Shown in pieces: positions 2,676 through 64,000 of a DNA stretch of 64,000 bases. A program made the position numbers and the translations under genes. This DNA comes from a virus. Under the pieces are notes generated by a model, which was given only the letters and a program-made list of their open reading frames with translations, did not search any database and was not told the DNA's origin. Position 1 is the stretch's first letter; the number at the start of each line of letters is the position of its first letter. The stretch lies in the IMG/VR virus record IMGVR_UViG_3300045996_000987, one strand, 5' to 3'.

Positions 2676-3116
2676 CTAGTGAGCCCACATCGGGATCAGT
2701 TGCCCATCGTCTGTCATCACCCGGAGGCTGATCCCAGCCTCGGTGAGCAGCGCCAACCCCTCCGGCGAACGGTACTGCTGGCGGAACACGACGTGCCGGA
2801 CCTTCGAGTTGATGATCGCTTCGGCACACGCCGCGCATGGGCTGTGCGTGACGAACATCATTAGCTCGCCCTCGTGGTAGGGCGCCTTGATGAGCGCGTT
2901 CATCTCGGCATGGAGCTTACACCCACAGTTCCCCGGCTCGTCCCGGAGGCACCCATTCGGGAGCCCCCGAGCGCGGCCGTTGTACCCGACGCTCCATGAG
3001 ATTGTCATCTCCATGTTGGTGATGACCGCCCCGACTTGGAGCCGGGCGCAGGTGCCACGGGTGGCCACCACTTCCGCGATGCACATCCACATCTCGGGCA
3101 GTGAGGGCCGTTCCAT
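2676..3116 (-). CDS. dCMP deaminase (deoxycytidylate deaminase)
   Basis: HAEMNAL and SPCAACA zinc-binding motifs. Start refined to MERPSL (ATG 3116), overlapping the upstream stop as TGATG. Confidence 0.8.
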   Translation of the reverse strand: MERPSLPEMWMCIAEVVATRGTCARLQVGAVITNMEMTISWSVGYNGRARGLPNGCLRDEPGNCGCKLHAEMNALIKAPYHEGELMMFVTHSPCAACAEAIINSKVRHVVFRQQYRSPEGLALLTEAGISLRVMTDDGQLIPMWAH

Positions 3117-3316
3117 CACGCCGGCACCGTGACGGGTCCGGGTCCGGGCATCACCCACAGCGCCTCCTCCTCGTCCTCCTCGATCTCGTCATCGTGGTCC
3201 TCGTCCTGCTCTTCGTCCTCATCCCCGAACAGGGTGGCCGAGAGCACGAAGAGGATGCCAATGACGGCGAGGATGAGCGAGAGGTACGGCGAGGGGCTGT
3301 ACTCCACGAGCCTCAT
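3116..3316 (-). CDS. Small hydrophobic protein with acidic N-terminal half
   Basis: 66-aa ORF: acidic run (DEDEEQDEDHDDEIEEDEEE) then a hydrophobic helix; translationally coupled on both sides. Confidence 0.4.
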   Translation of the reverse strand: MRLVEYSPSPYLSLILAVIGILFVLSATLFGDEDEEQDEDHDDEIEEDEEEALWVMPGPGPVTVPA

Positions 3317-3648
3317 CGCACGGCCCTCAGTCGATCTGCGAGCTTGACGTACGGCACGCGGCCGACGAAGCTCTCGATGACATGCTGGTTGCGGACGAAG
3401 AGCGTCGTGGGGAAGGCCGTGATGCGATACCGGGCCGCCGAGGCGGGACAGGCATCCACGTTCGCCTTAACCACAGCGAAACGGCCGGCGAACTCCTGCG
3501 CGAGCATGTCGAGGGACGGCGCCATCAGCTTGCACGGGCCGCAGTCCGTCTTGTAGAACTCTAGGACGACCACATCGGACGGCAGGCCGAGCAGCAGCGA
3601 CTCAAGGTGGCGGTCGTCCGGGACGTCTATGGCTTTCGCGTTATTCAT
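3313..3648 (-). CDS. trx: Thioredoxin
   Basis: FYKTDCGPCK active site and thioredoxin-fold pattern; CAAGTAACC 6 nt upstream of the ATG. Confidence 0.8.
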   Translation of the reverse strand: MNNAKAIDVPDDRHLESLLLGLPSDVVVLEFYKTDCGPCKLMAPSLDMLAQEFAGRFAVVKANVDACPASAARYRITAFPTTLFVRNQHVIESFVGRVPYVKLADRLRAVR

Positions 3649-19115: not shown

Positions 19116-19191
19116 GCTCTACCTCGACGTGACTGTGGGTACGTGGTACTGCGTCACGTACTACCTCCCAGTCACGCCGGGTAGGACAGGA

Positions 19192-21297: not shown

Positions 21298-22167
21298 CTA
21301 CTTGGCGGCGAGCCCGAACCGCTTCCGGATCTCGGGGAGCGCCGCCCGGAGCGCCACATCAGCCTCGAAGACCGTCTTGTCCTTGAAGAACGGCTTCTCA
21401 TCTCCGAAGTGGATACGCACCGTGCTGCCGTGCCGGGCGGACACCTTCACCTCGACGCCGGTTGCCCCGTGCTGGCCACCGAGGAGGTAGAAGTTGAACT
21501 CCATGCCGCCGCGGCTCGTCCAGTAGTTCATGTGCTCCCCGAGGCTGCCGTCGAACTCGTCGCGCACGAGCGCTTCGAGCACGTTCCGCGGCGTCGGGGT
21601 GTCGAGCGCAGGGGGCTTCGGCTTGGCCGGCGTCTTCTCCTTCGGCTTCTCCTTCCACGCGGTGATCTCGGCCGCCCCGTTCGGCGTCCCCTCGAACGCG
21701 AGATCGGCATCGCGCTTGACCGAGAGGATCTTCTTCGCGCAGTCGGTACCGATCCACATGCCGATCGGGTGACCGTCCTTCGTCTCCCCTACCACGGGGC
21801 ACCACGAGAACGCGCTGTAGATCGCCTTGTTGCAGAGCGCACAGTGGCCACCGTCTCCGAAGCGGCTCGTGAAGAGCGTCCCCTTCGGCCAGCGCACGAT
21901 GCCGACCAGCACTTCCCGCTCCCGAAGCTCCGTGATCTCGCCAGTGCCGTAGTTCCACCAGCGAGCAGTGCGAGCGGGGCACGTAGGGCAGCGCTCCTTC
22001 TTGTTCCACTCCCCCACCTGTCCCGTGCCGTGGCAGGTGGGGCACCGCACCTTCGTGGGCACCTTCCTCAGCACGAGCTTGAAGTCGATGCGCGCAACCT
22101 TCCACCCGTCGATCTTGGCGTTCATCAGGCGCAAGGTCGTCAGCGCCTTCTCGCTGTGCGTGCTCAT
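21298..22167 (-). CDS. Zinc-finger protein
   Basis: CPTCHGTG...CPTC and CALC...C motifs; Lys/Pro-rich linker. Confidence 0.45.
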   Translation of the reverse strand: MSTHSEKALTTLRLMNAKIDGWKVARIDFKLVLRKVPTKVRCPTCHGTGQVGEWNKKERCPTCPARTARWWNYGTGEITELREREVLVGIVRWPKGTLFTSRFGDGGHCALCNKAIYSAFSWCPVVGETKDGHPIGMWIGTDCAKKILSVKRDADLAFEGTPNGAAEITAWKEKPKEKTPAKPKPPALDTPTPRNVLEALVRDEFDGSLGEHMNYWTSRGGMEFNFYLLGGQHGATGVEVKVSARHGSTVRIHFGDEKPFFKDKTVFEADVALRAALPEIRKRFGLAAK

Positions 22168-22193
22168 GTGGCTCCTCGTGGGTACTTGGGTCG

Positions 22194-22628
22194 TCAGGCG
22201 AGATAGTCGTCGTTCGCGATGTCCGCCGCGGCGCTCTCGTACTCTTCGGCCCTACTCTCCAGATCGTCCGCGACCGTTTCGAGCGAGGTGAGGTCGAGCG
22301 AGGGCCAGTCCCGGTCGAGGTTGCTCACCTCCTCCAGCCGTGAGATGGCCTCGGCTACCATCTGCCCATTATCGCCCTCCTGCCACTTCTCGGACTTCTC
22401 GTCGTAGCTGTCCTGCATCTCCGTCGCGAAGCCCTCGGCCTCGCTCTCCGCGTTGGCCGCGGCATCGTCCGCGCGGTCGAGGCACGGCTTCACCTGCTCC
22501 TCGAAGTCGCTCGTGATCTCCACGATCAGATTGCGGACCCTCTGCGCCGCCTCCCTGAGAAAGTTGCCCGTGCGGTTCAGGTCTGCGACGATCGCCTCGG
22601 CGCGCTTCTTCTGTGCCTTGCTGGCCAT
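22194..22628 (-). CDS. Acidic coiled-coil protein
   Basis: 144-aa ORF. Confidence 0.4.
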   Translation of the reverse strand: MASKAQKKRAEAIVADLNRTGNFLREAAQRVRNLIVEITSDFEEQVKPCLDRADDAAANAESEAEGFATEMQDSYDEKSEKWQEGDNGQMVAEAISRLEEVSNLDRDWPSLDLTSLETVADDLESRAEEYESAAADIANDDYLA

Positions 22629-22647
22629 GGTTGTCTCCGATGGTTGG

Positions 22648-22866
22648 TTACTTGGTGTCCTTCGCGTCCTTCTCCTCGACCGCCTTGCGCCACGCCTTGC
22701 ACGCCAGCACGAGCAGTTCGAGGTGCGCCTTCTCGTTCTGTTCCAACTCAGCGAGCGTCATCCACGAGGGGACCGCCATCCTCCCGTCCTTGATTAGCTG
22801 GACGGTCGTGGCGGTCGCCTCGTAGCTCTGGATGGCCTGATGGAGTGGCTTGTCGATCCGCCGCAT
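22648..22866 (-). CDS. Hypothetical protein
   Basis: Start refined to MRRIDKP; the upstream part of the track ORF is Arg-rich noise. Confidence 0.35.
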   Translation of the reverse strand: MRRIDKPLHQAIQSYEATATTVQLIKDGRMAVPSWMTLAELEQNEKAHLELLVLACKAWRKAVEEKDAKDTK

Positions 22867-23084
22867 CAGGGGTACGTCTTGCCGGTCGGCCGCCGCAGGT
22901 GCTTCGGCCACACGTAGAGCGGCGTGCCGTGCTCCGGGGCGATGTAGACCTGACCGATGCTGTTGATCGACAGCACCTCGCACGCCTGCCACCGCTCGGA
23001 CGTCTCGGGCGACGCGGAGAGGGCCGCGTAGTTCACCTCGGCCTTGTCGCCCACGTTCCACTCGCTCGGTGCGCGCTTGGTCAT
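22866..23084 (-). CDS. Hypothetical protein
   Basis: Start refined to MTKRAPSEW; ATGA coupling. Confidence 0.35.
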   Translation of the reverse strand: MTKRAPSEWNVGDKAEVNYAALSASPETSERWQACEVLSINSIGQVYIAPEHGTPLYVWPKHLRRPTGKTYP

Positions 23085-23317
23085 CCGGTCACCTTGGCGC
23101 GTGCCCCCATCGCGATGTGCTCCTTCGCTTCCGCCAGCGAATCCACGCGCCCGTCGTGCTCGTGCTCCCGGAAGATGTCGTACTTGCCCTCGGGGCCATC
23201 GTCGGCGCCGGGGGTCACGTTCTCCACCTGCCACAACTCGCCGTCGTAGACGAAGTAGCGGCTGCCGTCCTTCACCGGGTCGCGCGTGAGCTTCACGTCG
23301 ATCTTCGTCTTGTCCAT
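23081..23317 (-). CDS. Hypothetical protein
   Basis: 78-aa ORF. Confidence 0.4.
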   Translation of the reverse strand: MDKTKIDVKLTRDPVKDGSRYFVYDGELWQVENVTPGADDGPEGKYDIFREHEHDGRVDSLAEAKEHIAMGARAKVTG

Positions 23318-23330
23318 GATCTCCTCGTGG

Positions 23331-23570
23331 TCAGATGTACCCGTGGACCCGCGCCCGCGCCTTCACCTCCTCCTGCTTCTCCGGCCGGAGATCTCCGAGC
23401 CGCACCCACACGTCCCCGCGGGTATTGGCGTCCTTCCAGCCGTGGTACACCACGTCGTCCGGCGCCTTGTCCGCCAGCGCCCGATCGACGTTGAAGTCCG
23501 TGTTGCCGGCCAGCATGCGGTTCCACGTCCGGAGGTAGGGGTACCGCACCTTCTTCTTCTGCTCGGGCAT
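23331..23570 (-). CDS. Hypothetical protein
   Basis: 79-aa ORF. Confidence 0.4.
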   Translation of the reverse strand: MPEQKKKVRYPYLRTWNRMLAGNTDFNVDRALADKAPDDVVYHGWKDANTRGDVWVRLGDLRPEKQEEVKARARVHGYI

Positions 23571-23630
23571 GACTAGCTCCTGAAAGGGTTCACTGTGTTA
23601 TCGCAGTGAGGGGGCCGGGTGTAAACCAGA

Positions 23631-23825
23631 TCAGATCTCCTCGATCTCGTCAGGGTCCAGCAGGATCGCGTGTCGCGCCCCGTCGAAGAACACGCGGTAG
23701 GAAGGCGGGCAGTTCTCGCCGCGGTTCACGAGTTCCGTGACGGTCCCCTGCTTCCCGTACATGGCCTCGACCAGCCGGGTGTTCGCACGCACCCGCTGCC
23801 CAATCTTGAATCGCTTCTCCGGCAT
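23631..23825 (-). CDS. Hypothetical protein
   Basis: 64-aa ORF. Confidence 0.35.
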   Translation of the reverse strand: MPEKRFKIGQRVRANTRLVEAMYGKQGTVTELVNRGENCPPSYRVFFDGARHAILLDPDEIEEI

Positions 23826-23852
23826 GTTTGGTAGGGTTGGCGGTGTGATGAT

Positions 23853-24245
23853 TTACGGGGACGCGAAGAGGGCGTTCACCCGCGCCTGCTCCACCACGGT
23901 ACGCGTGATGTGGCGGGCCGTCTCCTCGTGATCCGCGAGCGGACGGGGACGCCACGACTCCTGCTCCAGAATGGCCTTGATGAGCGGCCCCACGGCGTCG
24001 GAGAGCGCCCGGAGCTTCTGCTGCTCCTGCTCCGTGGAGATGTCGAGGTACCGGCGGATGTTCGCCGCGAGCTTCGGGCTCTTGCGGGCGCGGTCGAGAA
24101 GGATGCGCTTCACCTCGTCGCCGTCGTCGTGCTCAAAGCAGGCCGAGAAGCGGCGGGTTGACGGTCGGCCGCTGCGGATGATCGCCGCCGCAATGTCGGC
24201 GCGCTGCTTCGCCGTGGTGCTCGGCACGTAGGCAATCGCGGGCAT
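23853..24245 (-). CDS. Hypothetical protein
   Basis: 130-aa ORF. Confidence 0.4.
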   Translation of the reverse strand: MPAIAYVPSTTAKQRADIAAAIIRSGRPSTRRFSACFEHDDGDEVKRILLDRARKSPKLAANIRRYLDISTEQEQQKLRALSDAVGPLIKAILEQESWRPRPLADHEETARHITRTVVEQARVNALFASP

Positions 24246-32926: not shown

Positions 32927-33688
32927 TCAGGCCGCGCGCCGGGCAGTCGCGATGCGGGCCATCATCTCTTCGCGCCACTCCAGCGCGAAGTCGAGCGAGT
33001 TCTGGAGGTTCGTCTGGTCGTCCGTGCTATGGTACTCCCGGCGAACACGCCGCGCTTGGAAGCTCCACGCGAGGCTGTCGCTCGATGCGAGGAAGGGGGC
33101 CGCACTGATGAGGCCCGTGACCTTGAAGCCGAAGCCGTGCAGCTTGAGCCCATGCGCCTTGAGTGTGCGGATGATGTACTGGCCCGAGAACTCCTGCTGT
33201 CGGCGGCAGACCGTGCCGACCCCGACGAGTGGGTAGGTACGAAGATCCACGCCGGCCGCTGTGTACATGTCGATGTGCCGCTCGTGGTCGCCGTGCATCG
33301 ACCATCCTTGTAGGACCGGGATGAACGGTAGCTCGGGCGCAAGATTGCGGAGACAGAGGAAGTTGTCCACGCTCCTCCGCTGGTGCTCCTCGACCGTGAG
33401 CTTCGTCTTGGCCAGCATGTCAGGCTCGCACATCCAGTCCTGCGGGGCGGCCCATGCCATCTTGCCGATCTCGTCCCGGAATCGGCGCACGAGGCGGACG
33501 TACTCGCGGGGGTCCAGCCGCCACTCCCCATACATCGAGAGTTCGCTGAATCCCCCGCTATCCAAAGCCCATCGGCCGAGCGCCCGAGGGAACGTCTTCC
33601 TCCGTTCCAACTGGCGCCGGCTGATGAACAACGGTACGTCGGTCCTCGCCAGCCACGGGACTACGTGGGTGCCGAGGTAGAACTTCAT
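32927..33688 (-). CDS. dpdA: 7-deazaguanine DNA transglycosylase (TGT family, DpdA-like)
   Basis: ALDSGGFSELSM matches the TGT LTDSGGFQVFSL catalytic segment. Further TGT-like segments FYLGTH, AAPQDWMCEP, IPVLQGWS, PLVGVGTV and SSDSLAWS. Short (253 aa) with no Zn subdomain, as in phage DpdA. Confidence 0.7.
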   Translation of the reverse strand: MKFYLGTHVVPWLARTDVPLFISRRQLERRKTFPRALGRWALDSGGFSELSMYGEWRLDPREYVRLVRRFRDEIGKMAWAAPQDWMCEPDMLAKTKLTVEEHQRRSVDNFLCLRNLAPELPFIPVLQGWSMHGDHERHIDMYTAAGVDLRTYPLVGVGTVCRRQQEFSGQYIIRTLKAHGLKLHGFGFKVTGLISAAPFLASSDSLAWSFQARRVRREYHSTDDQTNLQNSLDFALEWREEMMARIATARRAA

Positions 33689-35006: not shown

Positions 35007-35107
35007 GGCGATACCTTGCGTGCTTGGGTGGTTACCTGTGCCTTACTGGCCAGTAACGTTACTGGCCAGTAAGGCGGGGGTACGTCAACAGCGATGCTGC
35101 GGGTGGT

Positions 35108-44984: not shown

Positions 44985-45047
44985 ACGGTTACCTCCTACG
45001 GGTTACTTGGATGGGACACGCAGCCTTACTGGGAGTAAGGCTGACAG

Positions 45048-45134
45048 GGGACGAGGCACGAATCGAACGTGCGCCTCCGCGAGAACACGCATTACTGAGC
45101 GAGTCGCGGCGCTCTGCCACTGAGCTACCCGTCC
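45048..45134 (-). tRNA. tRNA-like gene with oversized (21-23 nt) anticodon loop
   Basis: Minus strand. Acceptor GGACGGG/CTCGTCC, D-arm GCTCAGTGGCAGAGC, T-arm GCACGTTCGATTCGTGC; the anticodon stem CCGCG/CGCGG encloses ACTCGCTCAGTAATGCGTGTTCT. Confidence 0.35.
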
Positions 45135-45428: not shown

Positions 45429-45498
45429 GATCGGTTACCTCAAGCGAAGGGTTACTTGGAACGGCGGCCTTACTGGCAGTAAGGCAGGGGTACTGCGA

Positions 45499-45938: not shown

Positions 45939-45982
45939 GGTTACTTGTGGTGAAGGGTTACTTGCCTTACTGCCAGTAAGGA

Positions 45983-46201: not shown

Positions 46202-46316
46202 GTGACCTCCTACGGGTGACTTGCCTTACTGCCAGTAAAGGACTGCCATGCGCGCCCACGGCCCGACCCGTGGCGACCTTACTGGCGAGTAAGGCCGAAC
46301 CCATGCGCGCTCCACG

Positions 46317-46556: not shown

Positions 46557-46756
46557 TGCTGTCTCCAAGTGAAGGGGAAAGCTTACTGCCAGTAAGGGAC
46601 GGGGAAGTGGGCCGGCGGGCATCGAATCCCGCACACGGGGCTGTTATCGAGCGAGGGGTTGCGTGTGTCCGATCTTCGGCCCAATGCGCGCCCACGGTGC
46701 GAGCCGTGGCAGCCTTACTGGGCAGTAAGGCCGAACCCATGCGCGCGTTCCATCTA

Positions 46757-47077: not shown

Positions 47078-47207
47078 GGGACGTTCTCCGGAACATGGTG
47101 ACGTGTGCCTTACTGGCGAGTAAGGCGAGGGGACTGCCATGGCGCGGCGAGGGCGCGACCCCTCGCGACCTTACTGGCAGTAAGGCCGAACCGATCCGCG
47201 CGACCGA

Positions 47208-47480: not shown

Positions 47481-47689
47481 GGGACGGACTCCGGAACATG
47501 GTGGACGTTACTGGCCAGTAAGGGACGGCCCTACGGTACTGCAACGTGCGCCGTGCCTGCGAAAGCACGCGGGCGGCACCCCTGCCTTACTGGCCAGTAA
47601 TGCCGCCCGAACCGATGCGCACTGCCGTTCGACTACACTGGCGGACGGGCGCGCACGTCTCGTGCGCGTCCGGCCGGCAGTCACCACAC

Positions 47690-48403
47690 TTACGCGACCG
47701 GCATGGCAGCGACGTTCTTGCCGACCGACGTCAGGACCGCGAGAATGTCCTTGGGAGCCATGCCGTCGCGCACGCCAGCCTTGACCGCATCGGCGAAGAT
47801 CGCCGCCATCTTCACGGCGTCCATCTTGCCCGTCGTGTCCACGGCCGGCGCGTCGGTCGCGGGCGCGTCCACCGTGCCGCCCTTGCCACCCTTGCGCGAC
47901 GGCGCCGCGGCGGCCCATCCCTGCTCGATGGCGTAGAAGCTGCCGACGTTGCCCGTGAAGAAACCGACCGCGGTCGCACTGCCGTTCATGGCGTCGCGGA
48001 CGGCGCGCGTCACCTTGCTGTACCGGACGGTGAGCGAACGGTAGGCGGTCACGACGGCCGCCATGCTCTCCGGGAACGTGTCGCACGCGTTGGCGTCGAA
48101 CCGATCTTCATCGCTCGCGAACGCGTCCCACATCTTGCGCTCGGCCGGCGACAGCTTGGCCAGCAACCCCGCCCGGAGCGCGTCCACCACGGCCGCCCGG
48201 AAGCCGTCCAGCATCTTGCGCTCGCTCCACGTCGCGAGCCCCGCGGCGACGGCCGCGATGTAGAAGGACCGGGCCACGTTGTCCATCTTGCGCCCGGCCG
48301 ACCGGCCCAACGTCGCGATGTCGAGGTTGTCCGCGATGGCGCCCGTGATGAACGCGGCGGCGATGGCGAACGTGACGTTGGCGTTGCTCGTGGTCTTCGA
48401 CAT
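47690..48403 (-). CDS. Hypothetical Ala-rich protein; first gene of the leftward block
   Basis: Start refined to MSKTTSNANV with AAAGGTGACCAAA-ATG upstream. Confidence 0.4.
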   Translation of the reverse strand: MSKTTSNANVTFAIAAAFITGAIADNLDIATLGRSAGRKMDNVARSFYIAAVAAGLATWSERKMLDGFRAAVVDALRAGLLAKLSPAERKMWDAFASDEDRFDANACDTFPESMAAVVTAYRSLTVRYSKVTRAVRDAMNGSATAVGFFTGNVGSFYAIEQGWAAAAPSRKGGKGGTVDAPATDAPAVDTTGKMDAVKMAAIFADAVKAGVRDGMAPKDILAVLTSVGKNVAAMPVA

Positions 48404-48445
48404 TTTGGTCACCTTTGGAAACTGGGTTGAACAGTCGCAAGGCAT

Positions 48446-49800
48446 TCGCTTGCGACACTGGCGCGCATCGCTCCGAAACGATGCGGAACCTTGCTGCCGT
48501 TACTGGCCAGTAAGGACCGAACCTATCGCGCCGTGACGGTCGCCCGTCACTTGGCATGCGTTCCACAATCCCGGCCCGACGCAATCCCTTGTGTTGAGAC
48601 TGCCGGAATCACTGGCGAATTCCCCGTGTCACGCCCTGTCACGGCCCGGATTCATCGCCCGATATTCCACCGCTCTTGCTTCCCGCATACTTGGCCCCAT
48701 GGCGTCCGGCCGTCGCGACGTTTCACAACGTTGCCCGGATTGCGTCCGCCATTGCCTAGACCGCATTCCCCGCGATGCACTCGGCTCGCTCTTGCGGTCA
48801 CTCGCTCCACCCGGCGCCATTCTGGCGAACCTTCCGCCCGCAACCCGCGGGTTGCGTTTGAACCTCTGGCACCTTGCCCGTTTCCCTTCCCGCCCTTTGG
48901 GGTCCACCGTCCGGTCGCATCCTTTCGGGATTCCATCCCCGGCCCCATCGGGCACGGTGGCGGAATCCGTTTCGGCGCTCCGGCGGGGCCGCTTCCCGAT
49001 CCGGGGAAGCGGCACGCCCCATTGGCGCGGTGTGCCTTTCGGCACTATGTCAATCAGCATGTGGTCCGGGGCCGATACGTTGCGCATGCTTGCCGCTTGC
49101 CGCTTGTCGCGCGCCTATCGGAATGCCGTCCGCCATTCTGTGCCGTACCGTGCGCCACACGTTCGCTTGCCGCTTGCCGCTTGTCCGTGTGTCCTACGCA
49201 ACCCGCCCGCTTGCTCGTGCATCGGAGTTGCCGCCGGTACGTGCCGGTCTTCCTTACTGCCGGTAACGTTGCGTTACCGTATCCGACCCGCTTGTGTCGG
49301 TCGCGCCACGCGTTGCGCACCGGCCGGGTTGTCTTTTCTGCCCGCCGCTTTCCTTCCGACCCCTCCGCATAAGCCCTTTTACGAATGCGGCCATTTTCCC
49401 AAACCCCCCATTTGCACCGACTTACAGCGCTCGATTTGCCATGCGCAAAACGCGAATGCCCCCGGTTGCCCCCATCGTCCTCGAAGTAACTGAGGACATC
49501 ACGGGAGTAACCGGGGACAACGTGTAAGTACCCGAGAAGTACAGGCTTAAACTCAGTGAATCCGACGAAAACGACCCCTTACGCACCCCCTTCGCGTACG
49601 TATGGGGTAGCTCTCGATCAACTCATGGCCATCTCTTCGCGCTTCCTATATAGGAAAAGACGGGATCGACGTTGGAGTAGGTGATGGGGGCCGAAAAGGG
49701 TGCGGGGCCGCTGAGGGCAGTGGGCCGAAAGTGTCCTATACGGCGTAATCGAGAGGTATCAGGTACCGAGTACCAAGTAACCGATCCTCAAGTAACCGCT
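48446..49800. promoter_or_regulatory. Non-coding divergent control region between the leftward and rightward gene blocks
   Basis: No credible ORF (only Arg/Pro-rich noise frames). Contains GCTTGCC direct repeats, hairpin CCGCTTCCCG...CGGGGAAGCGG, AT-rich palindrome TTCCTATATAGGAA (about 49641-49654), GGGCCGAAA(A)G direct repeats and promoter-like element A at 49732-49758. Confidence 0.5.
49732..49758 (+). promoter_or_regulatory. Promoter-like element TGTCCT-N13-GAGAGGTA, followed by two CAAGTAACC copies
   Basis: tgtcct(49732-37) and gagaggta(49751-58), then accaagtaacc...tcaagtaaccgctc-GTG. Confidence 0.45.
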
Positions 49801-49801
49801 C

Positions 49802-50746
49802 GTGCAGCTACAGGTCATTCAGGGCGCAGCCGTGCGCTTCTACAGCCGCATCACCCACGAGGGTGAGCATCACGTCTGGAACAACCCGAGATCCGCGCGC
49901 ACGACGCGCTTTGCCGCGCCCCACGACGGGCGGCAGCAGTTCGGTGAGCCGTCACGCCTCGCATGGATGCTGCACCACGGCTGCGAGGTACCGGCCGAGG
50001 ACGCGATCCGCCGAACCTGCGAGCATCCGCGGTGCGTAAACCCGCTCCACCTCGAACGGCAGTCCGTGCTGCACGCCCGGCGTGTCGAGCAACTGGCCAG
50101 CGAGCTACACGAGCGCCGGCAGAGCGAGGAACGAGAGCGCGTGGCACGGGCCGAGCGCGACCGGCGGGAGGACGCTGAGATCCGCGCGCTACGGGAGCGC
50201 GTGAAGCCACCGCCCTACATGGTGCAGGCCGCGACGCCGGAGGAACTACCGGCGCGTCGGGAGTGCCGACACTGCGGAGCGGACACCGAGCGCGCAAACC
50301 TGATTCAGTCGCGATCTAGCAAGACGGGGCTCTACCGTCAGATAGCGCAGTGTCGGCCGTGCGCGCGGGCCACGAACGCCGGATGGTACCGCCGGAGTAG
50401 CCAGTCGCCCGGCGGGCTCGTGAAGCGCGTCGTCTCCTCAGCACGGAAGCGGGCGCGGGATACCGGCATGGCCTTCGATCTCACCCACGAGTTCGTCGCG
50501 GAGCTATACCGGCGGCAAGGCGGGCGCTGCGCGCTGACCGACATCGCCTTCGAGTTCAACGATTTCAGGACGGGCTGGCAGAGCCACCCACACAACCCGT
50601 CCCTCGACCGGATCGACTCGAAGGGTGGGTACACGCAGGACAACGTGCGCTTCGTCCTGCTCGTCGTGAACGTGGCCCTCCGGGACTGGGGGCTCGAAGT
50701 CGTGCTCCCGGCCCTGCGGGCACTCACGAAGCGGCAGGTTGCCTAG
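49802..50746 (+). CDS. HNH endonuclease-like protein
   Basis: HHGCEVPAEDAIRRTCEHPRCVNPLHLE (HNH_3-like) and C-terminal CALTDIAF...SLDRIDSKGGYTQDNVRFVLLVVN nuclease-like segment; GTG start 6 nt after CAAGTAACC. Confidence 0.5.
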   Translation: MQLQVIQGAAVRFYSRITHEGEHHVWNNPRSARTTRFAAPHDGRQQFGEPSRLAWMLHHGCEVPAEDAIRRTCEHPRCVNPLHLERQSVLHARRVEQLASELHERRQSEERERVARAERDRREDAEIRALRERVKPPPYMVQAATPEELPARRECRHCGADTERANLIQSRSSKTGLYRQIAQCRPCARATNAGWYRRSSQSPGGLVKRVVSSARKRARDTGMAFDLTHEFVAELYRRQGGRCALTDIAFEFNDFRTGWQSHPHNPSLDRIDSKGGYTQDNVRFVLLVVNVALRDWGLEVVLPALRALTKRQVA

Positions 50747-52648: not shown

Positions 52649-53025
52649 CGCAAGTAACCGCCCCCGAGCCCCGCGATCTCTCCGCGTGGGCACGCCAGAA
52701 GACGAACACCGAACTCGCCAGCGCGCTCGATCTCCTCGCCCGCGGCGCCCCGCAGCAGCCGGTGTTCGAGCAACAGGTGGCCATCCTACGGGAGAGCGCC
52801 CACCGCCTGCGCGAGAGCGTCGTAGACGAGCACTTCACGCTCACGATCGTCACCCCGGATGGCAGCACCGACGTCACGGTCGGCTCGCTGGAATCCGTGG
52901 CCAACTTCGAGCGCAGCTACAGTGGCGATGGCTACGCGGTCGTCCGCGCCGGACACCGCACGCTCGGTCGCGTCCCGCTTACTCCCGACGAGCAGCAGCG
53001 GCTCCGCGCGATGAGGGCCGACTGA
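52642..53025 (+). CDS. Hypothetical protein (GTG start)
   Basis: CAAGTAACC lies at codons 4-6. Confidence 0.3.
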   Translation: MVTQVTAPEPRDLSAWARQKTNTELASALDLLARGAPQQPVFEQQVAILRESAHRLRESVVDEHFTLTIVTPDGSTDVTVGSLESVANFERSYSGDGYAVVRAGHRTLGRVPLTPDEQQRLRAMRAD

Positions 53026-54950: not shown

Positions 54951-55024
54951 GTCCTTCTAGCTCAACTGGTTAGAGCAGCGGACTCTTAATCCGCAGGTTC
55001 TCGGTTCGATCCCGAGGGGGGACA
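54951..55024 (+). tRNA. tRNA-Lys(CTT): tRNA-Lys (anticodon CTT)
   Basis: Cloverleaf: acceptor GTCCTTC/GGGGGAC with two G-U pairs, D-arm GCTCAACTGGTTAGAGC, anticodon loop CTCTTAA, T-arm CTCGGTTCGATCCCGAG. Confidence 0.65.
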
Positions 55025-55166
55025 TAGGTACGGATGCAGTCGGGCCGCGGGAGTACAACATCGGGGGTGTGCGCAAGCACGAGTCGTTCCCCGTCAACGC
55101 TCCGGGTTCCGTAACTTCCGTACCGCTCGATCGAGTGGAAAGACCGGCGAAGACCCGGTACGGACA

Positions 55167-55200
55167 GGCTCCGTTCGTCTAGTCAGATAGGACGCCACTC
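55167..55200 (+). pseudogene. Diverged duplicate of the 5' half of tRNA-Glu (no 3' partner)
   Basis: GGCTCCGTTCGTCTAGTCAGATAGGACGCC shares CCGTTCGTCTA with tRNA-Glu at 55427; no complementary acceptor or T-arm follows. Confidence 0.3.
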
Positions 55201-55426
55201 ACGGCAGGTGTTGGTAGCAGGTGCGGGGCTCGCTTCATGGCGAAGCAATGCGAGGCCACAACCGTCCCGAGGCCCTAAGTTCCCACTGGTAGCTCAGTGG
55301 GCGACCTCCTTCTTAGGGTGTTCCCTCTACTCTTGGAGCGCGAACTAGGTCGCCACTGTGGTCGTAAGCGGGTAGCCTCGGAGTGTCTTGTCTTGGACAG
55401 CCCGCTCGTCGCAGGTGTCAGGTGAA

Positions 55427-55498
55427 GGCCCGTTCGTCTATCGGTTAGGACGCTACCCTTTCAAGGTGGAGAGACGAGTTCGACTCTCGTACGGGCTA
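55427..55498 (+). tRNA. tRNA-Glu(TTC): tRNA-Glu (anticodon TTC)
   Basis: Acceptor GGCCCGT/ACGGGCT, D-arm GTCTATCGGTTAGGAC, anticodon loop CTTTCAA, T-arm ACGAGTTCGACTCTCGT. Confidence 0.7.
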
Positions 55499-55938
55499 CT
55501 GCTCTTCGCTGTAACTTGAAGGGACTTAGGGAAGTGTAGGACCAGTACCGGGGCCGACATGGCATCGACTGGTATGTGACACGGAACGTCGAAGTGCGCC
55601 GAGGGACTTCATCTCGCCTCGTAAATCACGGGTGGACAAAACACAAATGCCAGCGATAACCTCGCGGCAGCGGATCGGCTTCTGGCCGAAGTTCTTGGCG
55701 GCGTAGCCGTCGAGAACCCCCACTTCGCAGCGGTCTAACGACCCTCGTAGCGGGTGACGCAACCCTGACGGACTCCGATACAGTCAGGGGCCTTGCATCG
55801 GGCGACACCGGGAGAGACTGGGGGTCTTGTCAGTGTCCCTTACCACGACTGACGACGGTTGGCTCGCTCGCCACGGGACCGTAACACCCGAAGGAGCTAC
55901 GCGCGCTGAACAAGACTGAACGACGATCATATCAACAC

Positions 55939-55963
55939 GGGAGTTCGATTCTCCCCGGCTCCA
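55939..55963 (+). ncRNA. Orphan tRNA 3'-end-like sequence (T-arm, acceptor 3' strand, CCA) ending a roughly 430-nt non-coding stretch
   Basis: GGGAGTTCGATTCTCCCCGGCTCCA; no matching 5' acceptor or D-arm upstream. Confidence 0.3.
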
Positions 55964-56181
55964 CTTGCTCCACGAGGTCACCATGCAGGTCATGTATCCA
56001 CGGACGCGAGTAACCGTACCGACAATGGAAGACGTGAAGAAGACGTGGGCGAGCCTACGTCATCGTGTGAAGTACGCGGTGAGCAAGACCTACCGTGAGC
56101 AGTTGGAACGGGAACGCGCAGAGCAGCGCGTGCGGGCCATGATGTACCTGCGGACGCCACCCGTCGTATAGCTCGCGGTAC

Positions 56182-56267
56182 GCCGGGGTATCCAAGAGGC
56201 CAAAGGGTGCTGACTGTAAATCAGCCGGGCGCCACGCCCTTCGTAGGTTCGACCCCTACCCCCGGCA
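56182..56267 (+). tRNA. tRNA-Tyr(GTA): tRNA-Tyr (anticodon GTA)
   Basis: Acceptor GCCGGGG/CCCCGGC, anticodon loop CTGTAAA, long variable arm, T-arm GTAGGTTCGACCCCTAC. Confidence 0.7.
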
Positions 56268-56274
56268 CTGTGCT

Positions 56275-56358
56275 GCTCGGATGGCGAAACTGGTAAACGC
56301 GCCAGACTTAGGATCTGGTGGGCGAAAGCCCCTGTCGGTTCGAGTCCGACTCTGAGCA
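56275..56358 (+). tRNA. tRNA-Leu(TAG): tRNA-Leu (anticodon TAG)
   Basis: Acceptor GCTCGGA/TCTGAGC, anticodon loop CTTAGGA, long variable arm, T-arm GTCGGTTCGAGTCCGAC. Confidence 0.7.
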
Positions 56359-56525
56359 TGTTGTCGCGTTTCCCCTGACAGGACGGGCGGTTAGTCATCA
56401 ACCAATATTGTCTGTCGCCGGTAGTTCGGAAATGCTCTCGTTTGATGGGGCGCGCTTGTAGAGGTGCTTAAACGCCGAAACCCCCAAAGGCACCCGTAGA
56501 TGAGCGACGGGGCCGACTACCAATG

Positions 56526-61598: not shown

Positions 61599-62384
61599 TT
61601 AGAAGGTCGTCCCGAAATCGACCTCGATCAACAGGCCCCTCGGCAGCCCGGCAAGGTCGAGGAGATCCGCGAGCAGCCCGTGCATCTCAGTCATCGGGGC
61701 GAAGAACATCGTCTCGCCCTGCATGCGGCGGGTGTTGTACGTGGTCACCATCGTCCGGAGCCGCTGCCGCTGATCGTGGCCCGTGATCTTCGCGCTCGCT
61801 CGCTTGGTCGGAGGCGGGCTCACCGTCCCGACACCAACGACGGCGGTCCCGTTCTGCGCCGCCTTCCTCGCGCGGAGCTTGATGGCGTTCGGCGTCATGG
61901 AGAGCGGCTTGCCCGTTCGCGGGGAGCGAGGCACCTGCCCGTCGCTGCGCGGCGCCCTCCCCGTGGGATGGGCACCCGGACGGGGCTTCCCGGCTTGCCC
62001 CGCTGCCCGGCGTATCCGTTCGAGTTGGTCCTGTGCGAAGGCGTACTCGTAGCCGCCCGCCAGCAACTCGGCCCGGATGTCCTCCTGCGACCGCCGAAGG
62101 GCCTTCGCGAGCGCCTTCACGAGCGGCGGGACGAACGGGTGGTTCACCGGCAGTTCGTAGTTCCGCTCCATCCGCATGAGCGAGCTATCGGACACCCCGC
62201 TCGCGTCCTGCATGGCGCGGAAGCTCAGGCCCGCCTCCGTGCGCAACCGTGCGAGGTTCTTGCTGACGGCCGCCGGGGGCCGCTGGTAGAACGAGCCCTC
62301 CGCGACACTCCGGAGCGACGGAGGGAGGGCCGTGTTCGAGGCCGGCGGGGTGATCTCCCCGACGACAGGGGCGGAAGCAGCCAT
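61599..62384 (-). CDS. XRE-family helix-turn-helix transcriptional regulator with C-terminal domain
   Basis: SKNLARLRTEAGLSFRAMQDASGVSDSSLMRMERN matches the HTH_XRE pattern. Confidence 0.6.
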   Translation of the reverse strand: MAASAPVVGEITPPASNTALPPSLRSVAEGSFYQRPPAAVSKNLARLRTEAGLSFRAMQDASGVSDSSLMRMERNYELPVNHPFVPPLVKALAKALRRSQEDIRAELLAGGYEYAFAQDQLERIRRAAGQAGKPRPGAHPTGRAPRSDGQVPRSPRTGKPLSMTPNAIKLRARKAAQNGTAVVGVGTVSPPPTKRASAKITGHDQRQRLRTMVTTYNTRRMQGETMFFAPMTEMHGLLADLLDLAGLPRGLLIEVDFGTTF

Positions 62385-62402
62385 GGTGCGGATCTCCTCG
62401 GG

Positions 62403-62894
62403 TTAGGACACGGCGGCGAGCAGTTCGCTCTCGATCGCGTGCCGGAGGTCGTTGATCTGGCCCTTCACCGGGCGCATCTCCTTGAGCGAGCCGTAGCGGT
62501 CGAACCAGCGGCTCAGTTCCCGCAACGCCTGCTCGACCACCTGCTCGCGGAGCCTCGACTGCCGCATGGCCGTCTGGAGGGGGACGTACGCCTTCCGGCT
62601 GTGCGGCGTCGGCTGCACGTAGACGAATGCCTTCGTGGCTGTCTTGCGGGCGCCCTTGACGAGCACCAACTGGGACATGACCGAGCCGGTCTGCTTCGTC
62701 CGGTAGAGGTCGGCCGCCTTGGCGTCGTCGCGCTCGATCAGCGGGTGGAGGGGACTCCGGCGATCGGCCGCCTCAGCCAAGATCGTTTCCTTCGTCACGC
62801 CGCCGTGTTCCGCCGCCAACGCTTCGAGGCGGTCACCGACCGCTTGGGCGTCGGCGGTGGGGAACAGGCTTTCGTTTCGCCATGCGTAGCGCAC
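62403..62894 (-). CDS. Hypothetical protein (GTG start)
   Basis: CAAGTATCC...GGAGACGGTC-GTG context; upstream part of the track ORF rejected. Confidence 0.35.
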   Translation of the reverse strand: MRYAWRNESLFPTADAQAVGDRLEALAAEHGGVTKETILAEAADRRSPLHPLIERDDAKAADLYRTKQTGSVMSQLVLVKGARKTATKAFVYVQPTPHSRKAYVPLQTAMRQSRLREQVVEQALRELSRWFDRYGSLKEMRPVKGQINDLRHAIESELLAAVS

Positions 62895-63042
62895 GACCGT
62901 CTCCGAGTTACAGGGTCCGTGGGATACTTGTGGACAAACGCCGTAAGTGGCTGCCCGCAAGGATGATACCGAGGCGTCCCGGACGGCGCCACCCTCTGCC
63001 CCCGTGGGGTGCCCCGGAGGGTGTAACTGGTGGCCATGGGAC

Positions 63043-63069
63043 TGTCCTGTCCGGGCCGATCGGGAGGTA
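63043..63069 (+). promoter_or_regulatory. Promoter-like element TGTCCT-N13-GGGAGGTA (no ORF downstream)
   Basis: tgtcct(63043-48), gggaggta(63062-69). Confidence 0.4.
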
Positions 63070-63183
63070 ATGGGGCTATTGGGCAAACCGCAGATAGCCC
63101 GGAGGTATTGGCACTCCAGCCCGGCGGGCAAATAACACCTAGAGGTTAAAAATGCACAATTCAACCTAGAGGTTATGGCGGTC

Positions 63184-63210
63184 TGTCCTATCCGGGGAAA
63201 TCGGGAGGTA
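63184..63210 (+). promoter_or_regulatory. Promoter-like element TGTCCT-N13-GGGAGGTA (no ORF downstream)
   Basis: tgtcct(63184-89), gggaggta(63203-10). Confidence 0.4.
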
Positions 63211-63289
63211 CTGCGTGGAGGACTCCACGAACGGGATTCAGTGCCGAAAGCTGGCGCCGCGCTTTTTTCTGCGCAGGCGACGGTTGTTG

Positions 63290-63560
63290 TGGGAGTGCGC
63301 CCGCGCGCCCCTACTACGAGTTACTGAGTTACTTCAACGTCGAAGTAGCTCGTTTGCCAGAGTTACTTGAGAGTGGCAATAAGAGAGTTACTTCGACGTA
63401 ACGGTCTAACTCAGACGTAACACTGAACTCACACGTAAATCACAAGGAACTCGAAGAGCAAAGAGTTACGAGAGAGTTCTAACAACATACGCTCACGTAA
63501 CAGAGAACAGATACTCTTCACGTTACGTCAACGAGAGCGTTGAGTAGCGTTGAGCCTGTG
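63290..63560. repeat. AT-rich island with at least 10 GTAAC/GTTAC-core repeats (GAGTTACT, ACGTAAC, CACGTTAC)
   Basis: About 45% G+C against about 67% overall; copies include AGAGTTACTTG, which is CAAGTAACTCT on the other strand. Confidence 0.6.
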
Positions 63561-63582
63561 GAGAAGACGGGTGACGGGATTC

Positions 63583-63610
63583 TGTCCTACGGGGCAGGGG
63601 ACGAGAGGTA
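63583..63610 (+). promoter_or_regulatory. Promoter-like element TGTCCT-N14-GAGAGGTA(AGGGGCGTAACC)
   Basis: tgtcct(63583-88), gagaggta(63603-10); 27 nt upstream of ATG 63637. Confidence 0.45.
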
Positions 63611-63636
63611 AGGGGCGTAACCCTACAGGAGCGCGA

Positions 63637-64000
63637 ATGTCAGGTCACCCGGATTACCCGATCGTCTACGAGTATCGGGACGGGAGCGAAGTGCACCCGG
63701 AGTGGGCGGGCCAGCAGGTGCCAGTGCCGCCGGAGTGGGTGCGCCAGCGTACCGGGCTCACGCGCGGCTGCGAGTTGGCGTGCCTCTCGCCGGAGTTGAA
63801 GGATCGGTTCAGCCCGGAGATCCGGAAGGGCCTCGTCGCCTACGTGCGCGACTACGAGCGCGTCCGCCGGGACGGCGCGAACCTGCTCGTCTGTGGATCG
63901 GGCGCGAGCTTCCGTCTCCGGCAGTGGGCCGCGGCGGCGACGCTCAACGAGATCGTCATGCGGTGGTCGTCGCGGTACGACCTCTCGGCGTCGTGGCTGT
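63637..64000 (+). CDS. Hypothetical protein, partial (runs off the right edge)
   Basis: ATG 63637 after GGAGCGCGA; open frame to the window end (MSGHPDYPIVYEYRDG...). Confidence 0.4.
   Translation, partial: MSGHPDYPIVYEYRDGSEVHPEWAGQQVPVPPEWVRQRTGLTRGCELACLSPELKDRFSPEIRKGLVAYVRDYERVRRDGANLLVCGSGASFRLRQWAAAATLNEIVMRWSSRYDLSASWL

Follow-up and report, generated by a model that had tools for sequence, protein, structure and literature searches.

What maintains a gene-free stretch of 1.4 kb in a phage genome, exactly where two blocks of genes diverge, is the question raised by the region at 48404-49801 (1,398 nt, hereafter the gap). The region was analysed within a window of 64 kb, which is part of a 66,269-nt metagenome contig from the Joint Genome Institute (JGI), has a GC content of about 65% and looks like a phage or a phage fragment. 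The gap separates a leftward block of minus-strand genes, extending from about 2.7 to 48.4 kb, from a rightward block of plus-strand genes starting at 49802 and containing nucleases, a NUDIX hydrolase, transfer RNAs (tRNAs) and a transfer-messenger RNA (tmRNA). Tentatively, and with a probability somewhat short of even, the gap is read here as a functional non-coding region for the control of divergent transcription, with an architecture conserved in its lineage and a left part that would be the untranslated leader of a leftward transcript.

The gap was compared with its counterpart in JX, a farmland-soil contig of 21.4 kb (ENA ERZ1761208; its gap lies on piece L007), which was the sole relative found. 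The comparison revealed that position, length (1,398 and 1,435 nt), depletion of A, orphan hairpins, a zone of lower GC in which the skews change sign and a promoter-like element at the right end were kept between the two, whereas the sequence itself, the folds of the RNA, the short repeats and the genes on either side were not. The retention of size, composition and layout without that of sequence argues for selection on the region itself, and the same pattern speaks against junk or decayed genes, against a structured RNA that is conserved and against a conventional immunity region. As phage genomes are tightly packed, a non-coding stretch of 1.4 kb which keeps its size, position, layout and strand composition is probably functional, and the gap under study is real and probably functional.

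Boundaries and gene-free status of the gap

The left boundary is formed by the first gene of the leftward block, encoding an ORFan of 237 aa which starts MSKTT (47690-48403, minus strand; GC content at third codon positions, GC3, 0.94; coding log-odds +0.99). The right boundary is formed by the first gene of the rightward block, encoding an HNH/endonuclease VII-like protein of 314 aa (49802-50746, plus strand; PHROG 3322, 1035 and 3118, E 1e-23 to 1e-15). For the leftward gene the most likely start is ATG 48403, with AAAGGTGA in front of it, and the start codon of the rightward gene is GTG 49802; these starts define the gap as 48404-49801, a slight refinement of its boundaries.

The GC content by codon position was flat from about 48420 to 49700 (maximum minus minimum 0.02-0.14) compared to 0.3-0.5 in the flanking genes. 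Besides the tRNA/tmRNA cluster and 570 nt at 63181-63750, the gap is the sole long non-periodic stretch in the window. The open reading frames (ORFs) of 293 aa (48491-49372, plus strand), 300 aa (48591-49493, plus strand) and 152 aa (48629-49087, minus strand) inside it were Arg/Pro/Ala-rich, with GC values of about 0.63-0.70 at all the three codon positions and coding log-odds of -0.15 to -0.25 bits per codon, compared to +0.63 to +0.99 for the neighbouring genes. Such long ORFs arise because the plus strand is poor in A and the minus strand is poor in T, which makes stop codons rare on both strands.

The gap ORFs gave no match in Pfam or PHROG, and a full HMMER scan of 1.84 billion protein representatives returned only the 264-aa call of the source itself (P0123) along with low-complexity matches. 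The search of Rfam gave no hit at the gathering score and nothing meaningful at E <= 10. The gap together with its left flank gave nothing useful against cultured phages (DNA and protein) and plasmids, and the left-flank protein matched only itself among 5.8 billion proteins. A hidden protein gene was thus ruled out by flat periodicity, negative coding scores and lack of homologues, and the gap of JX is also devoid of any ORF above 128 aa. The JGI annotation places P0123 as a hypothetical protein at 48699-49493 (plus strand), inside the gap; on the basis of composition, coding score and lack of homologues this gene call is almost certainly spurious. The sequence-only reading, made earlier by a model from the letters of this DNA, had called the region gene-free and its 290-300-aa ORFs an artefact of high GC, and both the statements were borne out by the flat GC at the three codon positions, the Arg/Pro/Ala-rich translations and the negative log-odds. 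No conserved protein gene with homologues, which that reading had named as contrary evidence, was found in the 1.84 billion proteins, Pfam or PHROG.

Composition and layout shared with a distant relative

The base composition of the gap is highly uneven between its strands. The strand-asymmetric tract at 48520-49420, putatively of minus-strand sense, contains 11.9% A, 38.3% C, 26.4% G and 23.4% T on the plus strand; read leftward it is 62% purine and poor in U. Among all the 800-nt segments of the window it has the lowest fraction of any single base and ties for the largest AT skew. Neither a 3-nt periodicity nor a hidden repeat period was found in it, and hidden tandem or periodic structure, for which it was searched, was rejected as absent. 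Elsewhere in the window, a minus-strand coding stretch at 22100-22950 has a plus-strand AT skew of -0.36, equal to that of the non-coding tract. On the right the tract gives way to a lower-GC zone (about 49400-49700) with 54-56% GC in its lowest 200-nt segments, compared to about 65% for the window overall, and both the AT and GC skews change sign within this zone, at about 49450-49550.

JX was found through its FEN exonuclease, the second-best non-self homologue of the window protein (51% identity, P0004) and the only one with enough flanking sequence. The order NUDIX (40%), tRNA, tmRNA and FEN (50%) and one further protein are shared between the window and JX, and nothing else; the three proteins have identities of 40-50%. 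The RNA genes of the plus block in the window, at 54951-56359, are tRNA-Lys, tRNA-Glu, tmRNA, tRNA-Tyr and tRNA-Leu, and their order relative to NUDIX and FEN is that of JX. In JX, a minus-strand block of small genes runs to L007 2550, followed by the gap of 1,435 nt and a plus-strand block from 3986. The JX gap contains no called gene and no codon periodicity. The A fraction of its tract is 11.7% (830 nt) compared to 11.9% in the window, its AT skew is -0.42 to -0.47, and a zone of 50-54% GC (lowest 50%, against about 62% overall) lies on its right side; GATTCTGTCCTA stands some 55 nt ahead of the gene that opens the rightward block. JX does not show the C>G bias seen in the tract of the window.

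The flanking genes of the two gaps showed no homology on the left or the right side, and a global MAFFT alignment of the two gaps was not meaningful. The only detectable colinear similarity between them was between window 49303-49408 and L007 3398-3506 (66% identity over 111 columns, blastn E = 4e-4). The local score of this segment was 21 compared to 14.5 +/- 1.7 in block shuffles and was reached by 1/150 of them. No convincing RNA fold shared with JX was obtained for the segment, two sequences only being available for the comparison, and no enriched k-mers were shared between the two tracts. A sponge of GGA sites for a CsrA-type protein was rejected, GGA counts being unremarkable. Rho loading on C>G sequence, or R-loop formation on G-rich sequence, was likewise set aside as a general explanation, as JX has the A depletion and not the C>G bias.

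The possibility that the gap consists of decayed genes or selectively neutral spacer is highly improbable in light of these data. The absence of conserved sequence, and of a structure signal in most of the tract, is what such DNA would show. The length and the A depletion (11.9% and 11.7%) are nevertheless equal in two genomes with proteins at 40-50% identity and differing flanks, the composition differs in sign or size from the coding DNA of either block, and useless DNA is quickly lost from phage genomes.

Further relatives were searched for on several routes. Scans of IMG/VR with both the flank proteins, the promoter motif, the 18-mer palindrome and the JX palindrome pair returned nothing, as did a scan of JGI metagenomes with the promoter motif; the scan of JGI metagenomes with the palindrome gave 30 single-copy chance matches, none of them related by tblastx. 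Other contigs with FEN homologues were not syntenic, NUDIX-alignment scans of GTDB genomes and IMG/VR yielded 54 loci sharing essentially NUDIX alone, and a FEN-alignment scan of IMG/VR reached at most 38% identity.

Putative transcription signals, hairpins and the proposed leader

The right end of the gap carries the promoter-like element TGTCCTATACGGCGTAATCGAGAGGTA (49732-49758, plus strand), which has zero mismatches to a 27-nt motif and lies 44 nt before GTG 49802. This motif, TGTCCTRTA-N5-WAATCGAGAGGTA (also written TTCTGTCCTRTA-N5-WAATCGAGAGGTA), has five exact plus-strand matches at 49732, 51862, 54648, 57012 and 59014 and looser copies at 63184 (plus) and 14599 (minus); at up to 3 mismatches, 7 matches were obtained against 0.00 expected. 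The copy at the end of the gap is the first of the rightward block. The TTCTGTCCT core also stands before groups of minus-strand genes at 19191, 14628, 4940 and 2626, and at 63580 on the plus strand. As the motif is always gene-sense and intergenic, ahead of gene groups in both orientations, it behaves like a putative phage-specific promoter, and it does not resemble a sigma-70 promoter. The TTCTGTCCT core is common to JX (6 copies), where the downstream half of the motif differs.

Between this element and the gene, two copies of the octamer AAGTAACC (49775-49797, starting at 49775 and 49790, plus strand) are located just upstream of GTG 49802. The window contains 20 copies, all of them gene-sense (4 on the plus and 16 on the minus strand), and the octamer may be a translation-related or 5'-untranslated-region signal. 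It occurs about 5-30 nt upstream of starts in both blocks, for example at 52652 and 59102 (plus) and at 45956, 45939, 45450 and 45001 (minus); in JX, GTAACC is found just ahead of GGAGG. The promoter-like element A with two start-associated copies, as described in the sequence-only reading, is therefore present. Together, the first copy of the 27-nt motif and the two AAGTAACC octamers would launch the rightward block.

In the centre of the gap, the perfect palindrome TTCCTATATAGGAA (49643-49656) is the most AT-rich of all the perfect palindromes of at least 12 bp in the window, in agreement with its earlier description as the only strongly AT-rich one. On comparison by eye, it can be read as two CCTATA cores of the promoter-like motif placed back to back. 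It is followed on the right by GGGCCGAAA direct repeats at 49688 and 49722, and on the left, in the lower-GC zone (49400-49625), by two long minus-strand hairpins at about 49625-49557 and about 49522-49455. RNA folding of 49400-49625 against shuffles gave -104 kcal/mol (z = -6.1) for the minus strand and -69 kcal/mol (z = -3.3) for the plus strand. The lower-GC zone, with this palindrome and the two stable hairpins, is the point at which the skews change sign. A degenerate leftward promoter, TTTTCCTATA-N9-CGAAGAG, may lie on the minus strand at TTCCTATATAGGAA, and the two strong hairpins right after it would form the 5' end of the leftward RNA. The left 0.9-1.0 kb of the gap (48404 to about 49420) would then be the long leader of the small early-type genes, transcribed leftward and left untranslated, rich in purines and poor in U.

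The direction proposed for this transcript was examined through composition. Gene-sense strands average A>T, with a skew of +0.06 to +0.08, and the minus strand of the tract has the same sign at +0.33 and +0.38. Leftward transcription is probable because the A>T polarity of the tract has the sign of mRNA-sense strands in both the genomes and is 4-5 times stronger, and because the structured islands of the window fold better as minus strand. Apart from the hairpins of the lower-GC zone, such an island was found at 48895-49045 (minus strand; minimum free energy -96 kcal/mol, z = -4.9), with a sliding z of -5.2 on the minus strand compared to -2.3 on the plus strand. It contains the inverted repeat GCCGCTTCCC/GGGAAGCGGC (48988-49013) and a GAAA-loop hairpin (49032-49045). 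The z values were near zero across most of the tract, so that the two minus-strand islands stand out. A perfect palindrome of 18 bp, CGCAACCCGCGGGTTGCG, is present at 48839-48856.

The folding results also bear on a rival view, in which the gap holds one or more independent long non-coding RNA genes, similar to the ICP1 transcript or to GOLLD/ROOL RNAs, in place of an early-operon leader. This view is unlikely, but several observations agree with it: a kilobase without ORFs and with purine-rich polarity, two minus-strand islands at z of -4.9 and -6.1, a length conserved in two phages, and the precedent of abundant kilobase-scale non-coding RNAs in phages. It is opposed by the absence of any Rfam match (GOLLD, ROOL or others) at E <= 10 in the gap and of any in the JX gap, by the folding of most of the tract, which is no better than that of shuffles, and by the absence of a terminator-like site bounding the tract. 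The JX gap has no significant structured island (|z| < 2.8), a single-sequence covariance model of the island at 48895-49045 found no match there, and the alignable segment offers no convincing common fold. A conserved structured RNA was rejected on these grounds, the islands being confined to the window.

The left end of the gap is marked by another repeated element. A hairpin-type palindrome, TTACT-N3-4-AGTAA (often CCTTACTGGCCAGTAAGG), occurs at 26 sites from 25007 to 48513, in the right half of the minus-strand block only (for example at 35043, 39163, 43083, 47508, 47587 and 48500); matches with up to 2 mismatches numbered 20 against 0.03 expected. In most cases a leftward start codon follows the element after 1-40 nt, and sometimes the element abuts the ATG. 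Its length is 13 or 14 nt, depending on a centre of 3-4 nt, and its 5-nt arms are constant; a variable centre with constant arms fits a hairpin better than a dimer operator of fixed spacing. Its left arm (CCUUA) is identical to the 3' end of 16S rRNA and its right arm (UAAGG) resembles a Shine-Dalgarno site, by which the hairpin could mask ribosome binding. The hairpin-bearing part of the minus block is devoid of TTCTGTCCT elements and therefore looks like a separate expression class, probably early.

Two copies lie in the gap itself, about 750 nt apart. The copy TTACTGGCCAGTAA (48500-48523, exact core 48500-48513, minus strand) precedes the start codon of the first leftward gene by 97 nt; in the leftward sense it has GGTTCGGTCC in front, as for four other copies at 46.2-47.6 kb, and its region is similar over 61 nt to 47492-47552. 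The copy CCTTACTGCCGGTAA (49252-49266) has one mismatch and overlaps a second inverted repeat, GGTAACGTTGCGTTACC (49262-49278); it is the degenerate palindrome copy placed earlier at 49251. The JX gap shows the same arrangement with another sequence. The element GTTACCGTGGTAAC has ten exact copies at L007 191-3322, which share a single orientation; the minus block holds seven, with 6/7 at 14-40 nt upstream of small-gene starts, and the other three are orphans inside the gap, 337 and 382 nt apart. The same role with a different sequence in the two phages suggests co-evolution of the element with a partner. Orphan hairpins with no gene behind them suggest that the element influences transcription or RNA processing, or serves as a binding platform, beyond any effect on the translation of an adjacent gene. 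As the hairpins of the early genes recur in the leader, a hairpin-acting factor could act on the leader before the first gene; such a factor might serve as a repressor or a roadblock, or else bind or process the RNA.

Further copies of the element are combined into larger units outside the gap. Two copies at 35040-35075 form a perfect palindrome of 36 bp. Intergenic repeats of a compound type, about 63 nt long and 84-89% alike, are present at 46248-46310, 46684-46746 and about 47140-47202; within each, ATGCGCGC brackets a GC-rich hairpin (CCACGG...CCGTGG) together with one copy of the palindrome, and the units recur every 436-455 nt among the small genes nearest the gap.

The orphan copies also bear on a lysis-lysogeny immunity region, which the sequence-only reading had considered. 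In a variant of it, a hairpin RNA from the leader would pair with the identical self-complementary element before every early gene, as in the RNA immunity of the P4 CI and P1 c4 type. Such a region is very unlikely here. The blocks are divergent, in both the phages the leader holds orphan copies of the element found before early genes, the window encodes a serine recombinase and an HTH_31 protein, and regulatory RNAs which derive from a leader and are complementary to gene leaders are known from P1, P7, N15 and P4. The flanks, however, encode an ORFan and an HNH/endonuclease VII-like protein and no repressor/Cro pair; the sole HTH_31 (XRE-type) protein found (61599-62384) is 12 kb off, beside another divergence point, and the serine recombinase is 34 kb away. 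The 1,398 nt of the gap are far above the size of an operator region (about 0.1-0.3 kb), no sigma-70-like promoter was found, the palindrome copies are about 750 nt apart, and intramolecular hairpins would compete with pairing in trans. The suggestion of a lysis-lysogeny switch was thus left without support. By analogy, the kilobase could instead be an early phage RNA of a new kind, a leader or non-coding RNA, long, purine-rich, U-poor and largely unstructured, selected for composition and length and not for sequence, whose orphan hairpins, as such or after processing, would regulate the identical self-complementary hairpins of the early genes in a shut-off or immunity circuit. This proposal is improbable; its logic would be that of P4 CI and P1 c4, but built on one palindromic element.

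Several points weigh against a control region with a leftward leader. The direction, and even the existence, of transcription of the tract is deduced from composition alone, and the A>T bias of gene-sense strands is weak, with a range of -0.17 to +0.22. The proposed leftward promoter was spotted by eye and matches the motif imperfectly, and the search for a sigma-70-like promoter in the gaps of the window and JX gave none. The centres of the window hairpins are inconsistently oriented (9 G-rich and 5 C-rich on the plus strand), the structured islands of the window have no equivalent in JX, and with a single comparator the conservation stands on two genomes. A leader of 1 kb would also have no obvious purpose. 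For the wider claim of a control region at the divergence point, made already in the sequence-only reading, support was obtained from the motif at the right end, the hairpin copy at the left end and the recurrence of the layout in JX.

The repeats within the tract raise the question of a replication origin. The array GCTTGCC GCTTGCC GCTTGTC, GCTTGCCGCTTGCCGCTTGTC, is present at 49088-49108 and again, identical and 77 bp apart, at 49165-49185 (plus strand), as an exact direct repeat of 21 nt. Single CGCTTG copies lie at about 49208 and about 49288; in total 8 copies of CGCTTG were counted against 0.46 expected (17-fold enriched). The arrays are lineage-specific candidates for binding sites. As iterons, the two (GCTTGCC)2GCTTGTC arrays and the scattered CGCTTG would bind a phage initiator, and the lower-GC zone 200-400 bp to the right would melt, possibly aided by transcription or by an R-loop from the G-rich leftward transcript. 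This origin is possible but doubtful. The exactness and enrichment of the repeats and the adjoining lower-GC zone are in accordance with it, as are short direct-repeat pairs in the JX gap (CGTGCCTTTGGGTC x2 and TGAARAATCAGCAC x2), colinear with the heptamer arrays and unrelated to them in sequence, and minus-strand G-quadruplex motifs, which are enriched in small numbers (2 per gap in the window and JX, compared to 0.14-0.19 per kb elsewhere). A precedent exists in the PLE satellites, where a non-coding region holds the origin (bioRxiv 10.1101/2020.03.12.988147).

Against an origin, the repeats form only two clusters and are not conserved between the window and JX, and the zone described as AT-rich still has 54-56% GC, a modest drop. 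No initiator (Rep-like) gene is adjacent, the primase-helicase of JX being about 14 kb from the right end of its gap. The window gap holds no TTATCCACA-like site, the JX gap has one chance-level near-match, and in the absence of a DnaA-box cluster a DnaA-dependent origin was rejected. The cumulative GC skew, calculated as had been proposed, shows no global extremum or turning point at the gap, the C>G bias of the window tract is missing in JX, and the A-depleted tract of 0.9 kb is not explained by an origin. Of the iteron-type origin suggested earlier, the heptamer arrays proved real, whereas the few clusters, the lack of DnaA boxes and of an initiator neighbour, and the absence of the repeats from JX speak against the function. 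Every feature in the earlier list of repeats and palindromes was found, within about 3 nt of the position given there. An origin could coexist with the control-region function.

A physical genome end or packaging region was also considered, in the form of a collapsed terminal repeat or of a cos/pac site with a T7-like entry leader, which would be internal only through circular permutation. A long non-coding stretch with palindromes and short repeats beside early-type genes would suit such an end, and parallels are provided by T7, with about 0.9 kb of non-coding DNA with promoters ahead of its first gene, and by T5, with a repeat-rich non-coding stretch in its first-step-transfer DNA. As two contigs assembled independently both have the gap in their interior, and as it has no terminase or structural genes nearby and contains no end-marking feature in its sequence, this explanation is very improbable indeed.

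The phage window and known systems compared

The majority of the genes in the window are ORFans. The replication-type genes include a DnaN clamp and a clamp-loader-like ATPase, and the window further encodes a FEN-type 5'-3' exonuclease, the NUDIX hydrolase, nucleases, several tRNAs, one tmRNA and a large serine recombinase, the latter 34 kb from the gap. A DpdA-family transglycosylase at 32927-33688 (minus strand; Pfam PF23859, E = 1e-75) implies that the phage DNA carries 7-deazaguanine modifications. Other genes encode a dCMP deaminase (2676-3158) and a thioredoxin (3313-3648). ARAGORN alone called a tRNA-Glu(CTC) of 88 nt on the minus strand at 45047-45134, which Rfam did not report; a 34-nt repeat overlaps this call, with further copies at 45493 and 38241. 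The stretch at 22628-23853 contains no gene in the ORF list based on GC3, yet codon periodicity is present in it. A second divergence point lies at 61599-63750, where two minus-strand genes, one of them encoding the HTH_31 (XRE-type) protein of 261 aa (61599-62384), face the non-periodic stretch at 63181-63750 with two promoter-like copies (63184 and 63580). From this arrangement it is a better candidate than the gap for a repressor-controlled switch.

No member of the lineage is in culture; its DNA modification is of the DpdA type, it has a tmRNA of its own, and its promoter motif is an unfamiliar one. The gap marks the place to seek the early promoters of the lineage, the regulator of its early genes and possibly its origin. 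The cultured phage with the best NUDIX match is the Xanthomonas phage Xp15 (Alachuavirus). As in the window, its small leftward genes and a rightward block with NUDIX followed by primase diverge from a non-coding stretch. In Xp15 this stretch is about 0.5-0.7 kb long, AT-rich (34-39% GC compared to 51%) and without strand skew, whereas the window has a gap of 1.4 kb with 54-69% GC and an A-depleted tract of 0.9 kb. The divergence region of Xp15 being ordinary and AT-rich, the long A-depleted tract is specific to the lineage of the window and JX.

A closer parallel in scale is provided by the PLE satellites of Vibrio cholerae and the phage ICP1. PLE has a non-coding region of about 3 kb beside a leftward cluster, with the origin in its rightmost quarter, and in ICP1 a space of about 1 kb without ORFs gives rise to its most abundant transcript, of about 800 nt, whose role is unknown (bioRxiv 10.1101/2020.03.12.988147). 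The likeness consists of a kilobase-scale stretch without ORFs beside a leftward cluster, and of 5' leaders which are conserved in occurrence and not in sequence. The systems differ from the gap in that no sequence relation exists and no RepA-like initiator was identified in the window.

The repeated hairpin invites comparison with the stoperators of cluster A mycobacteriophages, asymmetric sites of 13-14 bp bound by a known monomeric repressor (PMC9283540). Both are short sites repeated in the short intergenic spaces of a transcription unit, and the JX copies share one orientation; the element described here differs as a hairpin-type inverted repeat with a variable centre and with orphan copies in a long leader. 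N4-like phages have three hairpin promoters, recognised by a virion RNA polymerase of about 3,500 aa (PMC4496689). As in N4, a short stem (5-7 bp) with a small loop stands ahead of early genes, but the present element occurs in 10-26 copies, and no ORF of the window, which covers 64 of the 66.3 kb of the contig, exceeds 758 aa, so that a polymerase of about 3,500 aa is not encoded there. The repeated intergenic hairpin thus recalls the stoperators and the N4 hairpin promoters and has the defining features of neither. Iteron origins of plasmids and phages are similar in their tandem short direct repeats near a lower-GC stretch; they differ from the two clusters of 7-mers in the gap, which have no adjacent initiator gene and no DnaA boxes and do not recur in JX.

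Divergent control regions are themselves known, and the novelty of the gap, as far as the two genomes indicate, is the conservation of composition and length without conservation of sequence. If a long early leader or non-coding RNA is indeed made from it, the gap would be a case of conserved composition, in place of conserved sequence or fold, and RNA searches based on homology or covariation would miss such regions.

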